DNA of 64,000 nucleotides. Source: a virus. This document shows positions 11,185 to 53,173 of this stretch, one piece after another (position 1 is the first letter of the stretch; each line of letters starts with the position of its first letter). The stretch lies in IMG/VR virus record IMGVR_UViG_3300005573_000057, positions 32,001-96,000 of that record, one strand, 5' to 3'. Made by a program: the position numbers and the translations under genes. Under the pieces are notes generated by a model. It worked only from the letters and a program-made list of their open reading frames with translations, ran no database searches and was not told the DNA's origin.

Positions 11185-11236
11185 GTCAACTACCCCGGAT
11201 TGAAACCGCAAGGCTGATAGCTTGGTTGATCAGGGA
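11185..11236 (+). mobile_element. 5' fragment of an IscB-family element / omegaRNA
   Basis: gtcaactaccccgg...aaccgcaaggctgatagcttggttgatcaggga matches the omegaRNA 5' ends at 53173 and 32761, with an internal deletion. Confidence 0.8.
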
Positions 11237-11291
11237 TGCCCATGTCTCCGATGATGTTCGGGTCTGTGAGAATGAAGAAATTTCTTCTTGA
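11235..11291 (+). pseudogene. 3' remnant of a hexapeptide-repeat gene (DAHVSDDVRVCENEEISS*)
   Basis: Same EEISS* terminus as the adjacent paralogs. Confidence 0.8.
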
Positions 11292-11345
11292 CTTTTGCTG
11301 TTAGTAATCTATAATTCAGTTGTAAACATTCACAAGGAGCGATCC
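11275..11345 (+). promoter_or_regulatory. Cassette promoter/leader repeat copy 1 (TTGACT-N17-TATAAT plus AAGGAG)
   Basis: gaaatttcttcTTGACT...TATAAT..gttgtaaacatt..aaggag; six copies in the window. Confidence 0.85.
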
Positions 11346-11912
11346 ATGAAAAAATATGAATTGTTGAAAAATGACTCTATCCAATTTTCTGGTCATACCC
11401 TTTACCGTATCCGTGCTCTACGCAATTTCGGCGGTGTTCACGTGGGCAACAAGGGCGGCTATATTGAATCCGAAAATAACTTGAGTCACGATGGAGACTG
11501 CTGGGTATCCGACAATGCTCAGGTCTTTTGGAACGCTCATGTCACCGGGAATGCTCGGGTCTCCGAGAATGCTCAGGTCTTTTGGAATGCTCGTGTCTAT
11601 GGCAATGCTCGGGTCTCTGGGAGTGCTCTGGTTTTTGATAGTGCCGAGGTTTACGAGAATGCTCGTATTTATGAATATGCTCAAGTCTCCGGGAAGGCCC
11701 AAGTATCCGGGAATGCTCAAGTCTTCGGACGTGCTAATGTCTTTGAGAATGCTCTGGTTTATGGGAACGCTCGGGTCTACAAAAATGCTATGGTCTATGG
11801 TCATTCTAATGTCTTTGAAAATGCTCAAGTCTATGGAAGCGCTCGGGTCTACGGAAATGCGCAGGTCTATGGGGATACTCAGGTTTCTGGGGATGAAGAA
11901 ATTTCTTCTTGA
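11346..11912 (+). CDS. Hexapeptide-repeat (beta-helix) protein, paralog 1
   Basis: MKKYELL..LYRIRALR.FG..GGYIESE.NLS..G.CWV head, then (A)xV[YFS][GDE][ND] hexads. Confidence 0.88.
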   Translation: MKKYELLKNDSIQFSGHTLYRIRALRNFGGVHVGNKGGYIESENNLSHDGDCWVSDNAQVFWNAHVTGNARVSENAQVFWNARVYGNARVSGSALVFDSAEVYENARIYEYAQVSGKAQVSGNAQVFGRANVFENALVYGNARVYKNAMVYGHSNVFENAQVYGSARVYGNAQVYGDTQVSGDEEISS

Positions 11913-11966
11913 CTTTTTCTGTAGATGCTCTATAATTAAGTTGTAAACATTGATAAGGAGTTGGTC
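11895..11966 (+). promoter_or_regulatory. Cassette promoter/leader repeat copy 2
   Basis: TTGACT overlaps the upstream TGA; TATAAT 17 nt later; gataaggagttggtc leader. Confidence 0.85.
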
Positions 11967-12515
11967 ATGAACAAGTACGAACTGTTGAAAGATGACGCCA
12001 TTGTAATTGCTGGCCGAACTCTATACCGTGTTCGTGCTTTGCGCGATTTCGGTAATGTTCGTTCTGGGGACAATGGTGGCTATCTCGAATCCGAAAACAA
12101 TTTGAGTCAAGATGGAAACTGCTGGGTATCCGATGATGCTCGGGTCTTCGAGGATGCTTGGGTCTTCGATGATGCTCGGGTCTCTGGGAATGCTCAGGTC
12201 TTTGGAAATGCTCAGGTCTCTTGGAATGCCAAAGTATCTGGGAATGCTCAAGTATTTGGGGACGCTATGATTTATGGGGATGCTCGGGTCTCTGAGAATG
12301 CTCGGGTCTCCGGGAATGTTTGTGTCTATGGAAATGCCAAGGTCTACGGCTACAGTCATGTCTTTAGGAATGCTTTGGTCTTTGGGAATTCCGAGGTCTA
12401 TGGGCGTGCTTTGGTCTTCGATGATGCTCTAGTCTTCGATAATGCTCGGGTTTACGGAAATGCGCAGGTCTACGGGGATATTCAGGTCTCTGGGAATGAA
12501 GAAATTTCTTCTTGA
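11967..12515 (+). CDS. Hexapeptide-repeat protein, paralog 2
   Basis: Same head domain and hexads; EEISS end. Confidence 0.88.
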   Translation: MNKYELLKDDAIVIAGRTLYRVRALRDFGNVRSGDNGGYLESENNLSQDGNCWVSDDARVFEDAWVFDDARVSGNAQVFGNAQVSWNAKVSGNAQVFGDAMIYGDARVSENARVSGNVCVYGNAKVYGYSHVFRNALVFGNSEVYGRALVFDDALVFDNARVYGNAQVYGDIQVSGNEEISS

Positions 12516-12569
12516 CATTTGCTAGGGATCATCTATAATTCAATCGTAAACATTGATAAGGAGTTGGTT
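12498..12569 (+). promoter_or_regulatory. Cassette promoter/leader repeat copy 3 (consensus TTGACA-N17-TATAAT)
   Basis: cttgacatttgctagggatcatctataat...gataaggagttggtt. Confidence 0.88.
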
Positions 12570-13244
12570 ATGAACAAGTATGAACTCTTGGAAGATGACA
12601 CCGTTGAAGTCAATGGCCGTACCTTTTACCGGATTCGCGCTCTGCGCGATTTCGGTGATGTTCGTTCTGGCGACAAGGGTGGCTATATTGAATCTGAAAA
12701 GAATTTGAGCCAAATCGGAAACTGCTGGGTATCCGACAATGCGCGGGTCTTCGAGAATGCGCGGATTTTTGGGAATGCTCGAATCTTTGGGAACGCTATG
12801 ATTTATGGGAATGCTCGGGTCTACGATGATGCTCGGGTCTTTGGGGATGCTTGTGTCTATGGGAATTCTTCGGTCTTTTTGGATGCTTGTGTCTATGGGA
12901 ATGCTATGATTTATGGGACTGCTCGGGTATCAAGAACTTCTCGGGTATTCGGGAATGCCGAGGTCTACGAAAATGCGCAGGTCTCCGGTAATGATCAGGT
13001 CTATGGGAATGCCAAGGTCGCTGGGAATTCTTGGGTATTTGGGAATGTGAGAATCTTCGATGATGCTCGTGTCTTTGATAATTCTCGTGTCTATGAAAAT
13101 GCTCAGGTATTCGATAGTGCCCTAGTTTTCGGTAGTGCTATAGTCTCCGGTAGTTCTCAGGTCTTTGGGAATGCTCGGGTCTCGGGGAATGCTCGGGTTT
13201 CCGGGGACTCTCTGATTTCACGGAATGCAGAAATTTCTTCTTGA
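12570..13244 (+). CDS. Hexapeptide-repeat protein, paralog 3
   Basis: Same head domain, longer hexad array, EISS end. Confidence 0.88.
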   Translation: MNKYELLEDDTVEVNGRTFYRIRALRDFGDVRSGDKGGYIESEKNLSQIGNCWVSDNARVFENARIFGNARIFGNAMIYGNARVYDDARVFGDACVYGNSSVFLDACVYGNAMIYGTARVSRTSRVFGNAEVYENAQVSGNDQVYGNAKVAGNSWVFGNVRIFDDARVFDNSRVYENAQVFDSALVFGSAIVSGSSQVFGNARVSGNARVSGDSLISRNAEISS

Positions 13245-13401
13245 ATTTTAGCAACTTCACCATGTAAGGCCAACGACCATTTAATTGTTCGTTGGCTTTT
13301 TTGTATTCCAACTGACAGTGAATCAATTGTTCTGGTTGGCCCGTACTGAGCAAAAATTCAATATACTAACTAATACTATATTCCTCATTAGGAACCCAAA
13401 A

Positions 13402-24421: not shown

Positions 24422-24610
24422 TTACGCCATCAGTTCATTGAAGAATTCGCGGGCAATTTCCTTACAGCCAAGAATATCATCAGCATGGCCGATGCACAAT
24501 CCAGCATCAATAATGGGTTGGCTATAACAATCATAGCCATCATCGACCTTTTGTGCCCAGACGGAATAACCAAGATCCGCATGACTCGCTATCTTCGCCA
24601 TCTTGTTCAT
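24422..24610 (-). CDS. Hypothetical protein behind a cassette promoter (MNKMAKIA...)
   Basis: Preceded by the cassette leader gataaggagttggtcATGAACAAG. Confidence 0.7.
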   Translation of the reverse strand: MNKMAKIASHADLGYSVWAQKVDDGYDCYSQPIIDAGLCIGHADDILGCKEIAREFFNELMA

Positions 24611-24682
24611 GACCAACTCCTTATCAATGTTTACAACTGAATTATAGACCACCAATAGCAAAAGTCAAGAAAAAATTTTCTT
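24611..24682 (-). promoter_or_regulatory. Cassette promoter/leader repeat copy 4
   Basis: Reverse complement: ttttcTTGACTtttgctattggtggtcTATAATtcagttgtaaacattgataaggagttggtc. Confidence 0.85.
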
Positions 24683-25429
24683 GTTTTCGGCGACCCAAGC
24701 ATCCCCGAAGATCCAAGCATCCTCGGAGACATGAGCATCCCCGAATACCCGAGCATCCCCATAGACCCGAGCATTTCCATAGACCCGAGCATCCCCAAAT
24801 ACCAGAGTATCACCAGAGACCCTAGCAGTATCGTAGACCCGAGAATTCCCGAAGATCAGAGCATTCTCGAAGACCCAAGCATTTCCGAATACTTCAACCA
24901 TTCCATAAACCTGAGCATAACCATACACCCGAACATGCCCATAGACCCGAGCATATCTAAACACATAAGCATCCTCATAAACCTGAGAATCACCGAAGAC
25001 TTGAGCATTCCCATAGATACGAGCATCATCGAAAATCCGAGCATTCCCGTAGACACGAGCATCCTCATAAACCCGAGCATTTCCGTAGACACGAGAATGC
25101 TCGGAGACATGAGCATGCTCGTAGACCTGAGCATTCCCATAGACCCAAGCATCCCAAAAGACCCGAGCATCACAAAAGACCTGAGCATTCCCAAAGACAC
25201 GAGACTCCCCGAAGACCCGAGCATCATCGAAAATCCGAGCATTCTCGTAGACCCAGGCATCGTCATAGACCCAGCAGGTTCCATCTTGGCTCAAATTTTG
25301 TTCTGATTCAATATAGCCGCCCGTTTCGCCTGCACGAACACCGGGTAAATCGCGCAAAGCGCGGATACGGTAAAGGATGTGGCCATCGACTTCAACAGAA
25401 TCATCTTTCAACAATTCGTACTTGTTCAT
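24665..25429 (-). CDS. Hexapeptide-repeat protein, paralog 4
   Basis: Conserved head plus the longest hexad array. Confidence 0.88.
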   Translation of the reverse strand: MNKYELLKDDSVEVDGHILYRIRALRDLPGVRAGETGGYIESEQNLSQDGTCWVYDDAWVYENARIFDDARVFGESRVFGNAQVFCDARVFWDAWVYGNAQVYEHAHVSEHSRVYGNARVYEDARVYGNARIFDDARIYGNAQVFGDSQVYEDAYVFRYARVYGHVRVYGYAQVYGMVEVFGNAWVFENALIFGNSRVYDTARVSGDTLVFGDARVYGNARVYGDARVFGDAHVSEDAWIFGDAWVAENKKIFS

Positions 25430-26031
25430 AGCAAATCCCCATTCTGTATATCATAGACCTTAGCATCGCCATAGACTTCCGAATCGCCATAGACTTGCAC
25501 ATCGCCATAGACTTGCGCATAACCATAGATCTTGGAATGCCCATGGACCCAAGAATCCCCAAAGACATGAGCATTGTCGAAGACCTGAGCATCCTCGGAG
25601 ACTTGGGCACTGCCGTAGACACGAGCAAACCCAGCAACCAAAGCATAACCGGATACCAGAGAATCACCGTAGACTAGAGCACCCCCGCAAATCCGAGCTT
25701 TCCCACTGACTCCAGCGTTCTCGTAGACCTGAGCATTCTCGTAGACCTGAGCATGCCCATAGACCCGAGCATTCCCATAAATTTGAGAATTCCCAAAGAC
25801 CCGAGCATTTCCATAGATTCGAGCATCCCAAAAGACTATAGCATTTTCATAAACCCAAGCGTTCACCAAAACCCAACAGTTTCCATTTTGACTCAGGTTC
25901 TTTTCGGATTCAATATAGCCGCCTTTGTCGCCTGCGCGAACACCGGGTAAATCGCGTAAAGCGCGGATACGGTAAAGAACGCGACCATCGGCTTCAACAG
26001 TGTCATCTTCCAAGAGTTCATACTTTTTCAT
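25426..26031 (-). CDS. Hexapeptide-repeat protein, paralog 5
   Basis: MKKYELLEDD head; ATGA coupling on both sides. Confidence 0.88.
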   Translation of the reverse strand: MKKYELLEDDTVEADGRVLYRIRALRDLPGVRAGDKGGYIESEKNLSQNGNCWVLVNAWVYENAIVFWDARIYGNARVFGNSQIYGNARVYGHAQVYENAQVYENAGVSGKARICGGALVYGDSLVSGYALVAGFARVYGSAQVSEDAQVFDNAHVFGDSWVHGHSKIYGYAQVYGDVQVYGDSEVYGDAKVYDIQNGDLL

Positions 26032-32340: not shown

Positions 32341-32761
32341 ATTGCGTGTGGAACCTCGGCTTTTATGCCGAGTAGGTAGAGCGCAGATTGCTTCGCAATC
32401 TTTGCTTTGTGGCGTACCTAAATCACTCTCCATTTTTGCCACAGTTGAATAGGTGGAGGCTTTTCACCCCGCTGGGCCGTGAGGCTCTGCCCGTAAGGGC
32501 CTAGTGACGGAGACCTTACGGCCTCGCTCCCCTCGGGAATGTTTGTAACCGGCTCCACCCTTTCGGATGCGGCTAGAACCTTCGGGCCTTTACCTTTGCC
32601 CAGCATGATCCCAACCTTCCAGTGTCCGGGACTGAGGAAGCATCCCGGAGTGGGTCTCAACGACCTGTTACAAACGTAGCGGGTTTTCACCGCTTTCCCT
32701 GGTCAACCTAGCTATCGACCTTACGGTCTCAAGCTCCGGCCCGAAGGCCGGGGTAGTTGAC
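32337..32761 (-). mobile_element. Non-autonomous IscB-family mini-element (omegaRNA plus both ends, iscB deleted)
   Basis: 32500-32761 aligns with 52910-53173; 32337-32453 aligns with 51472-51583. Confidence 0.9.
32490..32761 (-). ncRNA. Stand-alone IscB omegaRNA (HEARO-like)
   Basis: Near-identical to the omegaRNA upstream of iscB, with stem-preserving differences (aaccgtaaggtt/gaccgtaaggtc; ccggctttcgggctgg/ccggccttcgggccgg). Confidence 0.85.
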
Positions 32762-44074: not shown

Positions 44075-44416
44075 TTAGCCATTCTGCTGCGCACTCTTTA
44101 CGCCATCTTCAAACGCTCGGGTAATAAGTTCCTCAAGTTCATTTTCTGACAAAAATGCCATCCTCGTCACAAGTTTTACCTTTGACAAACCATAGACATA
44201 TGAATCGGATTCATCGAGCTTTTTGATATTAACCATTTCGTTAATATAGTTAAGGTTCTTCAATTGGTTAAACAGCATTTCAAGCCCTTGCTCTTGTAAA
44301 GCTTCTTTACCAAGAGGGGATGCCGGATCGCCGGGTGGAAAAATCGGCTTACTTTCAAAATGTTCCAGCAAAAGCGCCTTTTCATCGTTGATGCGCGTTT
44401 TCAAAATCTTGTTCAT
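44075..44416 (-). CDS. Hypothetical protein behind a cassette promoter (MNKILKTR...)
   Basis: Preceded by gataaggagttggtcATGAACAAG. Confidence 0.7.
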   Translation of the reverse strand: MNKILKTRINDEKALLLEHFESKPIFPPGDPASPLGKEALQEQGLEMLFNQLKNLNYINEMVNIKKLDESDSYVYGLSKVKLVTRMAFLSENELEELITRAFEDGVKSAQQNG

Positions 44417-44488
44417 GACCAACTCCTTATCAATGTTTACAACTTAATTGTAGATGATCCCTAGCAAAAGTCAAGAAGAAATTTCTCG
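44417..44488 (-). promoter_or_regulatory. Cassette promoter/leader repeat copy 5
   Basis: Reverse complement: gaaatttcttcTTGACTtttgctagggatcatcTACAATtaagttgtaaacattgataaggagttggtc. Confidence 0.85.
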
Positions 44489-45001
44489 ATTCCCCGAAAT
44501 CAAATAGTCCCCATAGACTTTAGCATTTCCGTAGACCCGAGCATTCCCAGAGACACGAGCATTCCGAAAAACATGAGCATTTTCGTAGACCCGAGCATGC
44601 CCATAGAGTTGAGCATTCCCACAAACACGAGAATTCCCATACACCAGAGCATTCTCGACAACCTGGGAGTTCTCGAAGATCCACGCATTACCATAGACCA
44701 TAGCCTTTCCAGAAACCCATGAATTTTCAAAGACCATACTATTCTGGAAGACTTGAGCATCCCCGAAGACCAAAGCATTCCCGAATACCTTAGCATCATC
44801 AAAGACCCGAGCATTTCCGAAAACTAGTGCAGTCCCGTAGACCCAGCAGTTTCCCTCTTGACTCAAATTCTGTTCGGATTCGAGATAGCCGCCTATGTTT
44901 CCTGCGCGAAAATCGCCAAAATCGCGCAAAGCGCGGATACGGTAAAGAGTGCGGCCAGAAAATTCGATAGATTCATTTTTCAACAGTTCATACTTGTTCA
45001 T
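44471..45001 (-). CDS. Hexapeptide-repeat protein, paralog 6
   Basis: MNKYELL head; EISS end; an IscB-family fragment abuts the start codon. Confidence 0.88.
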   Translation of the reverse strand: MNKYELLKNESIEFSGRTLYRIRALRDFGDFRAGNIGGYLESEQNLSQEGNCWVYGTALVFGNARVFDDAKVFGNALVFGDAQVFQNSMVFENSWVSGKAMVYGNAWIFENSQVVENALVYGNSRVCGNAQLYGHARVYENAHVFRNARVSGNARVYGNAKVYGDYLISGNREISS

Positions 45002-45146
45002 CGGTTTGCGCGTGAAACCTCGGCATTTATACCGAGTAGGTATAAAGCAGAACGAGAAGCGTTCTATGCTTTGTGGCGTACCCAAATCACTCTCCATTTT
45101 TGCCACAGTTAAAAGGTGGGGGATTTCGCCCCGCTGGGGCGAGGCG
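45002..45146 (-). mobile_element. 3' part of an IscB-family mini-element (omegaRNA lost)
   Basis: Aligns with 32337-32487, including the mini-element-specific junction ccccgctggg. Confidence 0.85.
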
Positions 45147-45296
45147 AGAACAAAGAAGAAATATCACATGACGCGGATTTTTGAGTTCAGCTTCTACATC
45201 ATATTCGCCATCACAATGCTTCATAGCATATTCAGCAAGATTCACTAGGTCTTCAAGACTATCCAATGCTAGTTTCAGCAGTTCAACATCGTTCAT
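45087..45296 (-). CDS. Hypothetical protein whose C-terminus reads into the IS fragment
   Basis: AAGGA ribosome-binding site; MNDVELLKLAL. Confidence 0.6.
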   Translation of the reverse strand: MNDVELLKLALDSLEDLVNLAEYAMKHCDGEYDVEAELKNPRHVIFLLCSRLAPAGRNPPPFNCGKNGE

Positions 45297-45306
45297 GACA
45301 AATTCC

Positions 45307-45936
45307 TTATGCGTTGTTCTCGAAGACATGGGAAGTTTCAAAGACCCGAGAGTTACCAGAAACTACAGCATCCCCATAGACGCGAGAATTCTCAGAGACC
45401 CGAGCATCGCCGAAAACCAACGCATCCCCGCAGACCTCGGCATTATCGACTACCCGAGCATACCCAAAGACTTTACCATTTTCGTAGACCCAAGCAGTCC
45501 CCAAGATCCAACAATTTCCGTGGACACGAGCACCCCCGAAGATCCGCGCATCCATGTAAACCCAAGCATGCTCGAAGACATGAGCAACGTCATAGACCCG
45601 AGCATACCCACAAACCCAAGCACACCCGTAAACCGCAGAATCCCCGTAAACCCGAGAATTCCCATAGACCTCAGAATCCCCGGAGACAAGAGCATTTTCA
45701 AAGACCCTAGAATTCTCAAAGACTTGAGCATTCTCGTAGACATGGGCATTCCCGTAGACACGAGCATTATCGGAAACCCAACAATTTCCATCTTGACTCA
45801 AATTCTTTTCGGATTCGAGATAACCGCCTTTGTCGCCTGCACGAACAGCACCGAAATCGCGCAGAGCGCGGATACGGTAAAGGACTCGCCCATCGACTTC
45901 AACAGTTTCATCTTTCAAAAGTTCGTACTTGTTCAT
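45307..45936 (-). CDS. Hexapeptide-repeat protein, paralog 7
   Basis: Conserved head plus hexads. Confidence 0.88.
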   Translation of the reverse strand: MNKYELLKDETVEVDGRVLYRIRALRDFGAVRAGDKGGYLESEKNLSQDGNCWVSDNARVYGNAHVYENAQVFENSRVFENALVSGDSEVYGNSRVYGDSAVYGCAWVCGYARVYDVAHVFEHAWVYMDARIFGGARVHGNCWILGTAWVYENGKVFGYARVVDNAEVCGDALVFGDARVSENSRVYGDAVVSGNSRVFETSHVFENNA

Positions 45937-46008
45937 GATTAACTCCTTATCAACATTTACAACTGCATTATAGACCATCCACCAAAGAAATCAAGAAGAA
46001 ATTTCTTG
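45937..46008 (-). promoter_or_regulatory. Cassette promoter/leader repeat copy 6
   Basis: Reverse complement: gaaatttcttcTTGATTtctttggtggatggtcTATAATgcagttgtaaatgttgataaggagttaatc. Confidence 0.82.
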
Positions 46009-46077
46009 ATTCCGGGAGACCCGAGCATTCCCAGAAATCCGAGAACACCCAAAAACGCGACCATTTCTGTAGACCTC
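45991..46077 (-). pseudogene. 3' remnant of a hexapeptide gene (EVYRNGRVFGCSRISGNARVSRNQEISS*)
   Basis: Hexads plus EISS*, directly after the stop of the outer-membrane protein gene. Confidence 0.8.
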
Positions 46078-52885: not shown

Positions 52886-53173
52886 TTACTTCCTTAAATG
52901 CGCTTACGCGCCTAGTGACGGAGACCTTACGGCCTCGCTCCCCTCGGGAATGTCTGTAACCGGCTCCTGCCTTGCGGCAGCGACTAGAACCTTCGGGCCT
53001 TTACCTTTGCCCAGCATGATCCTAATCTTCCAGTGTCCGGGACTGAGGAAGCATCCCGGAGTGGGTCTCAACGACCTGTTACAAACGTAGCGGATTGGAT
53101 ACCGCTTTCCCTGGTCAACCAAGCTATCAACCTTACGGTTTCTAGCTCCAGCCCGAAAGCCGGGGTAATTGAC
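51472..53173 (-). mobile_element. IS200/IS605-superfamily IscB element (no tnpA)
   Basis: Follows TTCAT and ends TTGAC on the + strand; subterminal hairpins ctcggcattattgccgag and ccagcccgaaagccgg; removing it restores a TAATG rnh/next-gene junction. Confidence 0.9.
52890..53173 (-). ncRNA. IscB omegaRNA (HEARO-like)
   Basis: Structured non-coding region with GNRA/UUCG hairpins upstream of iscB; second copy at 32490-32761. Confidence 0.88.

Follow-up and report, generated by a model that had tools for sequence, protein, structure and literature searches.

A junction of gene tail, promoter and leader, resembling PeSL shuffling elements, links YdcK-like beta-solenoid genes in a T4-like phage

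Modular gene shuffling in T4-type phages is mediated by elements known as PeSLs, which are composed of an AT-rich region, a sigma70-like early promoter, a stem-loop, and a Shine-Dalgarno sequence with a start codon (Arbiol et al. 2010, PMC2839356; Comeau et al. 2014, PMC4122927). YdcK, with solved structures from Salmonella (PDB 2F9C and 2PIG; Pfam PF18836, B_solenoid_ydck; NCBIfam NF040481), is a beta-solenoid protein of 326-334 amino acids (aa). Counterparts of both occur together in the DNA analysed here, a window of 64,000 nucleotides (nt) corresponding to bases 32001-96000 of a 140,449-nt IMG/VR contig (IMGVR_UViG_3300005573_000057; window positions are prefixed w). The contig holds ten full paralogs of a YdcK-like family at five loci, many of them joined by a repeated junction. 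Seven paralogs and two 3' remnants lie in the window, all at the positions given by a first-pass annotation made from the letters, while the other three full copies (contig 29933, 30590 and 105894) lie outside it on the minus strand. Array 1 (w11233-13244, plus strand) comprises a 3' remnant and three full genes; the minus strand of the window carries the coupled genes w26031 and w25429, the genes w45936 and w45001, and the second remnant. A repeat search returned an 18-nt period within the genes and a 603-621-nt unit period across array 1.

The junction module is about 90 nt long and contains the AT-rich last codons of a paralog ending in TGA, a near-consensus sigma70-type promoter, and a leader with a strong Shine-Dalgarno sequence and ATGAACAAG. 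It resembles a PeSL in its T4-like genomic setting, in the order of its parts (AT-rich tract, sigma70-like promoter, Shine-Dalgarno sequence, downstream start codon), in the occurrence of many near-identical cassettes among small accessory genes, and in the presence of unrelated genes downstream of a shared cassette, where breakpoints fall at the edge of the cassette. Unlike a PeSL, it has no stable GC-rich stem-loop or terminator, its upstream half is paralog coding sequence with the stop codon within the -35 box, and its homology reaches into the first codons of the next gene. Because the defining stem-loop is absent, the junction is described here as working like a PeSL and is not called one. 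The PeSL likeness drawn in the first-pass annotation extends to recombination and expression behaviour (captured genes beginning with ATGAACAAG or MNDVELLK, deletion scars, a 16/16 identical spacer) but not to canonical PeSL structure.

Our preferred explanation, held with moderate confidence, is that an expanded YdcK-like family in a divergent T4-like hot-spring phage carries a PeSL-like promoter junction that doubles as a recombination site. Host RNA polymerase would transcribe each unit separately, early in infection, and the AT-rich tail would double as an UP-like upstream promoter element, a role that would explain the frozen synonymous sites described below. The junction and the head DNA, which is 79% identical among copies, would together form the longest homology between distant loci, and phage recombination could for that reason use the junction to add, delete or replace downstream genes, as PeSLs do elsewhere. 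Separately, in-register slippage or micro-conversion of the 18-nt repeat would alter the length of the rods and the residues on their surface.

The repeated unity of tail, promoter and leader is borne out by the scans. At nine places the stop TGA is also the TGA of a TTGAC -35 box, followed by a 16-nt spacer and TATAAT, as the first-pass annotation had proposed. The tail GAAATTTCTTCTTGA has six exact occurrences and one with a single mismatch, compared with 0.03 expected by chance, and the leader has six matches with at most three mismatches, compared with 0.08 expected. A strict scan of the contig for TTGAC-N(16-18)-TA(T/C)AAT returned 13 sites, 11 of them of cassette type; a looser scan adds the TTGAT variant at w45994, giving twelve cassette-type promoters in 140 kb. 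These stand upstream of six paralogs, five unrelated genes (w24610 and w44416 among the non-family genes behind the same promoter and leader), and one HEARO/IscB element fragment (contig 105061). The family tail directly precedes nine of the twelve (seven gene tails and two remnants). The three array-1 promoters agree with the sigma70 consensus at 11-12 of 12 positions with a 16-nt spacer. AAGAAATTTCTTC lies directly upstream of the -35 box in cassettes, and the arrangement AAGGAG, 7 nt, ATG is the same in all canonical cassette copies. Promoters had been described on many variants of the family, which holds for four of the seven window copies (11346, 11967, 12570 and 45936), but w26031, w25429 and w45001 have no cassette promoter, nor does the copy at contig 105894.

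Two further promoter features of the contig may be recorded here. A cassette-like promoter (TTGACA, 17-nt spacer, TATAAT) lies directly before a tRNA-like sequence at contig 104429 (minus strand, about w72429), and the motif TATAATT-A-TTGTA, spanning -10 to +8, is common to several non-cassette promoters of the source phage.

The last codons of the tail are invariant at the level of synonymous choice. Within the series GAA, ATT, TCT, TCT, TGA, and with the two remnants included, GAA is kept in 8/8 cases, ATT in 9/10 and the final TCT in 10/10, while their shares among synonymous codons in the remainder of the genes are 59%, 43% and 44%. If the copies are independent, which their synonymous divergence (dS) roughly allows, the frozen sites imply constraint on the nucleotides themselves. 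Conserved last codons had been ascribed to the paralogs as a whole; most copies carry them, but 26031 and 45936 lack the standard tail. The codons before the stop also form GAAGAAATTTCTTC, a perfect 14-nt palindrome at three junctions, with a core of 10-12 nt, AGAAATTTCT, at most of the others.

This symmetry opens another reading of the frozen codons, in which the palindrome, at about -50 to -37, is an operator that binds a dimeric phage or host regulator switching all cassettes, so that the tail is held for the regulator and not as an UP-like element. The perfect 14-mer and its widespread core speak for it, as do palindrome matches on both strands in the pattern scan and the retention of the palindrome after paralog 3, where no promoter follows. 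Against this, the palindrome is wholly absent from three cassette promoters, its symmetry is lost in two variants (w24668 and contig 105061), the analysis turned up no candidate regulator, and AT-rich tracts upstream of the -35 box are general in T4-type early promoters and PeSLs (PMC2839356). An operator is considered very improbable.

The case for recombination at the junction rests on scars at the cassette edges. The cassettes at w12512 and w44474 share a spacer identical at 16/16 positions and are about 96% identical between -20 and the ninth coding base; after it, the former leads into a paralog and the latter into an unrelated 113-aa gene. Three further between-locus spacer pairs are identical at 14/16 positions, compared with a mean identity of 0.59. 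Unrelated genes behind cassettes still begin with the first 3-8 codons of the family, and homology ends precisely after these. The 62-aa gene at w24610, with ATGAACAAG and a second ATG, looks like a cassette fused before a pre-existing start. Two paralogs have lost tail and promoter by deletion: the frame of paralog 45936 ends in the leader TAA, which indicates that the rest of its rod, its tail and its promoter were removed, and at the 26031/25429 junction a decayed leader is kept as coding sequence. Both remnants begin abruptly mid-rod and retain tail, promoter and leader; the first-pass annotation was right that both preserve the tail. Such scars match those reported for PeSL-mediated shuffling (PMC2839356), and, so far as they can be read from one genome's sequence, they support the junction as a putative recombination site with PeSL-like shuffling.

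The competing view is one of static operon punctuation, in which the junction is kept as promoter, ribosome-binding site and start context, takes no part in recombination, and the arrays go back to ancient duplications that have since stayed frozen. It draws on dS values of 0.7-1.0 between copies, near-neutral spacers that have diverged down to the mean identity of 0.59, neighbouring copies that are not clearly closer than distant ones, and the lack of structural variants in metagenome contigs, which were built at k=31 and break at every cassette. What it leaves unaccounted for are the family start codons on unrelated genes, the copy that ends in the leader TAA with tail and promoter gone, the 16/16 spacer shared by w12512 and w44474 despite unrelated downstream genes, and the two 3' remnants. 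On balance, static punctuation is judged unlikely, and recombination at the junction is preferred.

Several observations nevertheless weigh against recombination at a promoter junction. In paralog 3 the frozen tail is retained although no promoter follows it (TTGAA comes next, then a terminator-like hairpin), so the promoter may not be the sole reason for tail conservation. Conversely, three cassette promoters (contig 30648, 31728 and 108648) have no preceding tail, which means that the tail is not needed for the promoter and is not an obligatory part of the unit; the earlier proposal that gene tail plus promoter is the duplicating unit is accordingly upheld as to the repeated junction, but promoter and leader also occur without the tail. 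Folding of six junctions gave no stable stem-loop, only a 5-11-base-pair A/U hairpin at the palindrome, with five of six z-scores between -0.6 and +0.6, and a terminator scan found none at the junctions. The copies are old, so shuffling would be slow or ancient. No array joints were seen in two metagenomes, whose k=31 contigs break at every cassette and cannot show joints. Finally, the cassette promoters are predictions from sequence.

The age of the copies was estimated from the heads and rods. Head DNA has a mean identity of 79% among copies, and of 67% at third codon positions, with a nonsynonymous divergence (dN) of 0.16 and a dS of 0.71; in the rods dS is about 1. Identity between tandem neighbours is 0.76-0.84, hardly more than the 0.79 averaged over all copies, which together with the dS values indicates old duplications. 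The promoter spacer, the best neutral marker of the junction, has diverged about as gene divergence predicts, so that functional constraint, and not recent homogenisation, mostly accounts for the close match among copies of the -35 box, the -10 to +8 segment and the leader. The family had been termed diversifying, with dN/dS at hexad positions offered as a check; no position exceeded 1, the apparent ratio being 0.92 at the free hexad position x and 0.17-0.53 at the other five, in a position-indexed Nei-Gojobori test that is weak, given saturated dS and uncertain hexad orthology between paralogs.

A small but direct sign of recent change comes from hot-spring run X1, in which a contig covering w10000-11963 (1,964 nt) differs from the window at five sites, all within w11665-11714 in the rod of paralog 1. 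At the protein level they give R to H, I to V and N to K; one patch repeats the 18-nt unit beside it, and the variant 18-mers occur nowhere else in the contig. This cluster, from one contig at depth 10, suggests faster change in rods than in the sequence around them; it represents variation within the population or possibly a micro-conversion.

The encoded proteins are assigned, from profile matches and sequence comparison with the solved YdcK structure, to the YdcK-like beta-solenoid family (PF18836, PHROG 5070/7964, PDB 2F9C). All seven window copies match the PF18836 repeat at 48-101 bits, above the cut-off of 30, and 33 such repeat matches occur across the contig. Matches to PHROG 5070 and 7964, both annotated 'unknown function', have E values of 1e-65 to 1e-111. 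Paralog 3 aligns with the Salmonella structure 2F9C/2PIG at E 1.8e-25, residues 20-205 on chain positions 27-217, running from the head into the rod and pairing the head motif and a shifted hexad V-x-G-N-A-x. In contrast to YdcK, the phage proteins measure only 176-278 aa, and their repeats are perfect, without the irregular C-terminal part. Scores against the NF040481 YdcK_fam equivalog reach 90-114 bits where 350 are needed; with acyltransferase scores far below their cut-offs (given below), this marks the proteins as YdcK-like homologues, neither YdcK orthologues nor recognisable enzymes.

Each protein consists of a 54-residue head, with 32 columns invariant among the ten copies, and, after it, 20-37 hexads with the pattern V-(Y/F/S)-(G/E/D)-(N/D)-(A/S)-x. 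All 266 hexads of the ten copies (266/266) stand in one register without gaps, and entropy peaks at hexad position x with 3.05 bits. The standard ending N-x-(E/K)-I-x-S-stop is present in eight copies, and all eight lengths leave a remainder of 2 when divided by 6. The AlphaFold model is confident in the solenoid, with pLDDT above 90 over residues 90-200, and poor in the head. VIA-align paired it with the left-handed helices of LpxD and GlmU at Z 17-20 but with a root-mean-square deviation (rmsd) of about 12 A, and with right-handed autotransporter helices at Z 14-15 and an rmsd of 2.4-2.8 A, while Foldseek against the PDB gave no significant match for the paralog model. Since the handedness of the model is doubtful, the fold is assigned here from the sequence match with 2F9C. 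A DNA-mimic role was also considered and was rejected as a general rule, the isoelectric points of the paralogs ranging from 4.2 to 8.6.

Whether the paralogs could instead be hexapeptide acyltransferases, or virion parts such as fibre or whisker proteins, was weighed on the same evidence. Database names among the matches include 'acetyltransferase-like (isoleucine patch)' and 'LpxD', the top fold matches by Z-score are the LpxD, GlmU and LpxA helices, and there are weak PHROG matches to structural and tail-fibre families. However, the proteins reach 18-33 bits with NCBIfam acyltransferase models, whose cut-offs are 160-666, and 17-20 bits with PF00132, for which 27 is required, and the hexads are uninterrupted, with no inserted loop or extra domain for an active site. 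The genes carry promoters of the early sigma70 type and have small accessory genes, not the late structural block, as neighbours, and the structural PHROG matches reach only E 1e-3 to 1e-4, on repeat regions. An enzymatic or structural role is regarded as highly improbable.

The family is not novel: it is already known under the Pfam, PHROG and PDB entries above, and its arrays are common. One search returned more than 4,800 family clusters at 90% identity, and an IMG/VR pattern search returned more than 495 related loci. Among 69 viral loci with a placeable head motif, 41 hold at least two copies in the retrieved sequence of at most 13 kb, some as many as six, and conserved junctions of their own are frequent among these arrays. 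Other arrays in phages and prophages (L058/L071, L051, L047/L049 and L094-L096) likewise consist of two to six neighbouring copies in which the head is constant and the rod varies in length, each array with its own conserved gene tail and intergenic junction: six units ending AIIN with an identical AT-rich spacer at L058/L071, units ending DAA with a GC hairpin at L094-L096, and three units with a GTTTACA-type junction at L051. Their junctions differ from the present one in being spacers with only a Shine-Dalgarno sequence, AT-rich spacers or GC hairpin terminators. None of the array loci read has a stop codon inside a consensus -35 box, and none has the leader of the source phage. Distinctive here are the stop within the consensus -35 box, the frozen synonymous sites of the tail, and the captured unrelated genes with family start codons, whereas the gene family and its arrays are not new and the layout is a variant of the gene shuffling known in T4-type phages. 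At a further locus, L113 (a 163-kb JGI contig of a large phage), YdcK-like genes adjoin genes for DUF7666 plus pentapeptide-repeat proteins among small early-type open reading frames (ORFs), and the two rod-repeat families there, YdcK-like and pentapeptide, may share a head or a role.

As to what the rods do, our most likely guess is binding in host takeover or counter-defence, suggested by the early-type promoters and by a temperate prophage in which a homologue lies in the early region, flanked by an HTH_3 (Cro/CI-type) regulator gene and ERF/SSB recombination genes. An anti-defence role in particular is conjecture. PADLOC, whose models describe defence systems and not counter-defence, gave no match for two paralogs and two captured genes, and the literature search found no paper tying YdcK to phage biology and none using the terms PF18836, B_solenoid_ydck or DUF7666. 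A bolder proposal would make the junction a dedicated platform for gene capture and expression, a coding-embedded relative of PeSLs without the stem-loop, and the ten rods a repertoire of decoys or binders against host defence or surface components, diversified by 18-nt slippage; we consider it quite improbable. YdcK-like rods are among the commonest phage early proteins with no assigned function, and the ten natural variants of length and surface, most of them behind the same predicted strong promoter, offer a ready panel for questions of rod binding. The junction extends the PeSL idea to a distant, thermophilic T4-like branch and indicates that such a cassette can sit partly within coding sequence.

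The source genome, 79% complete by CheckV and with a GC content of 43.5%, is classed by its predicted proteins as a divergent T4-like phage. Its gp43-type DNA polymerase is 38% identical to cyanomyovirus polymerases, a Gp23-family protein is encoded just upstream of array 1, and PrkA, SpoVR, a DnaB-like helicase, an RNA ligase and an RRXRR/HNH (IscB-type) protein are also encoded. The stretch is present in two public DNA runs, both hot-spring metagenomes, whose sequences are k=31 contigs that end at each cassette, and a 'loose end' at w24600 in them is the paralogous cassette of locus 3. The public runs listed for the stretch include no RNA run. A search for near relatives through the Gp23-family protein and the DNA polymerase found none; the large family-bearing contigs L051, L067, L072 and L058 do not encode the DNA polymerase of the source phage; an exact-leader scan of IMG/VR gave just two chance matches, inside unrelated coding sequence; and the closest family match anywhere has 58% identity. 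The neighbourhood of the arrays consists of small genes with no database match together with WYL_2, R2K ATP-grasp, a cytidylyltransferase-like protein and a metallophosphatase. Neighbourhoods of this kind are termed hyperplastic regions in the T4 literature (PMC4122927).

Table 1. Family genes, remnants, cassettes and associated features in the window (window positions).
Feature	Position	Strand	Description
3' remnant 1	11233..11291	+	last three hexads and tail of a lost paralog; reads DAHVSDDVRVCENEEISS, then stop; abuts HEARO/IscB omegaRNA fragment
Cassette 1	11274..11345	+	palindromic AT-rich tail GAAGAAATTTCTTC; predicted -35 TTGACT 11288-11293; -10 TATAAT 11310-11315; variant leader; Shine-Dalgarno AAGGAG
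YdcK-like paralog 1	11346..11912	+	188 aa, 22 hexads, tail EEISS
Cassette 2	11895..11966	+	paralog 1 stop TGA within -35 TTGACT (11909-11914); -10 11931-11936; canonical leader
YdcK-like paralog 2	11967..12515	+	182 aa, 21 hexads
Cassette 3	12498..12569	+	-35 TTGACA 12512-12517; -10 12534-12539; 12/12 consensus; spacer 16/16 identical to cassette 44474 (minus)
YdcK-like paralog 3	12570..13244	+	224 aa, 28 hexads; standard tail, then TTGAA, no promoter
Terminator-like GC hairpin and T-run	13269..13302	+	closes array 1; folding z -2.58
YdcK-like paralog	25426..26031	-	201 aa; no promoter of its own; start overlaps upstream WYL_2 stop (ATGA); non-standard end runs into decayed leader
YdcK-like paralog	24665..25429	-	254 aa, 33 hexads; ATGA-coupled to 26031 copy; tail variant NKKIFS
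Cassette	24611..24685	-	canonical leader; predicted to drive a non-family gene
Captured gene	24422..24610	-	62 aa, no database match; begins ATGAACAAG, then second in-frame ATG (ATGGCG)
3' remnant 2	45991..46075	-	about 28 solenoid codons and tail NQEISS; out of frame with ORF ending 46076
Cassette	45937..46008	-	-35 variant TTGAT; leader with 4 mismatches; spacer 14/16 identical to cassette contig 29991
YdcK-like paralog	45307..45936	-	209 aa; ORF stops at TAA of leader motif ATAAGGA
Gene behind leftover leader	45087..45296	-	69 aa; starts MNDVELLK (family head: MNKYELLK), then unrelated
YdcK-like paralog	44471..45001	-	176 aa, 20 hexads, standard tail; no upstream cassette; TATAAAT in small hairpin instead
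Cassette	44417..44488	-	-10 TACAAT; canonical leader; predicted to drive a non-family gene
Captured gene	44075..44416	-	113 aa, no database match; begins ATGAACAAG, family similarity ends exactly there

Mobile-element sequence also touches the cassettes. Upstream of remnant 1 (w11171-11232, plus strand) lies a decayed cassette -10/start region (TCTATACTTGCATTGTCAA), followed by a 5' fragment of about 45 nt of a HEARO/IscB omegaRNA, corresponding to two full elements on the minus strand (32521-32761 and 52932-53173). The join, written GTCAA/CTACCCCGG with the slash marking the boundary, also follows the cassette promoter at contig 105061, and the shared joins indicate that IS200/605-type elements landed in cassette leaders, one of them being truncated against the remnant.

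Two minor features concern the copies that have no cassette. Upstream of paralog 45001 (w45010-45060, minus strand), a TATAAAT motif within a CTCGG...CCGAG hairpin resembles the core of a T4-type late promoter, and this paralog may be expressed at a different time. At w26028-27184 (minus strand), WYL_2, the R2K-clade ATP-grasp gene and the two promoter-less paralogs are linked by overlapping ATGA stop/starts, which suggests one translationally coupled operon.

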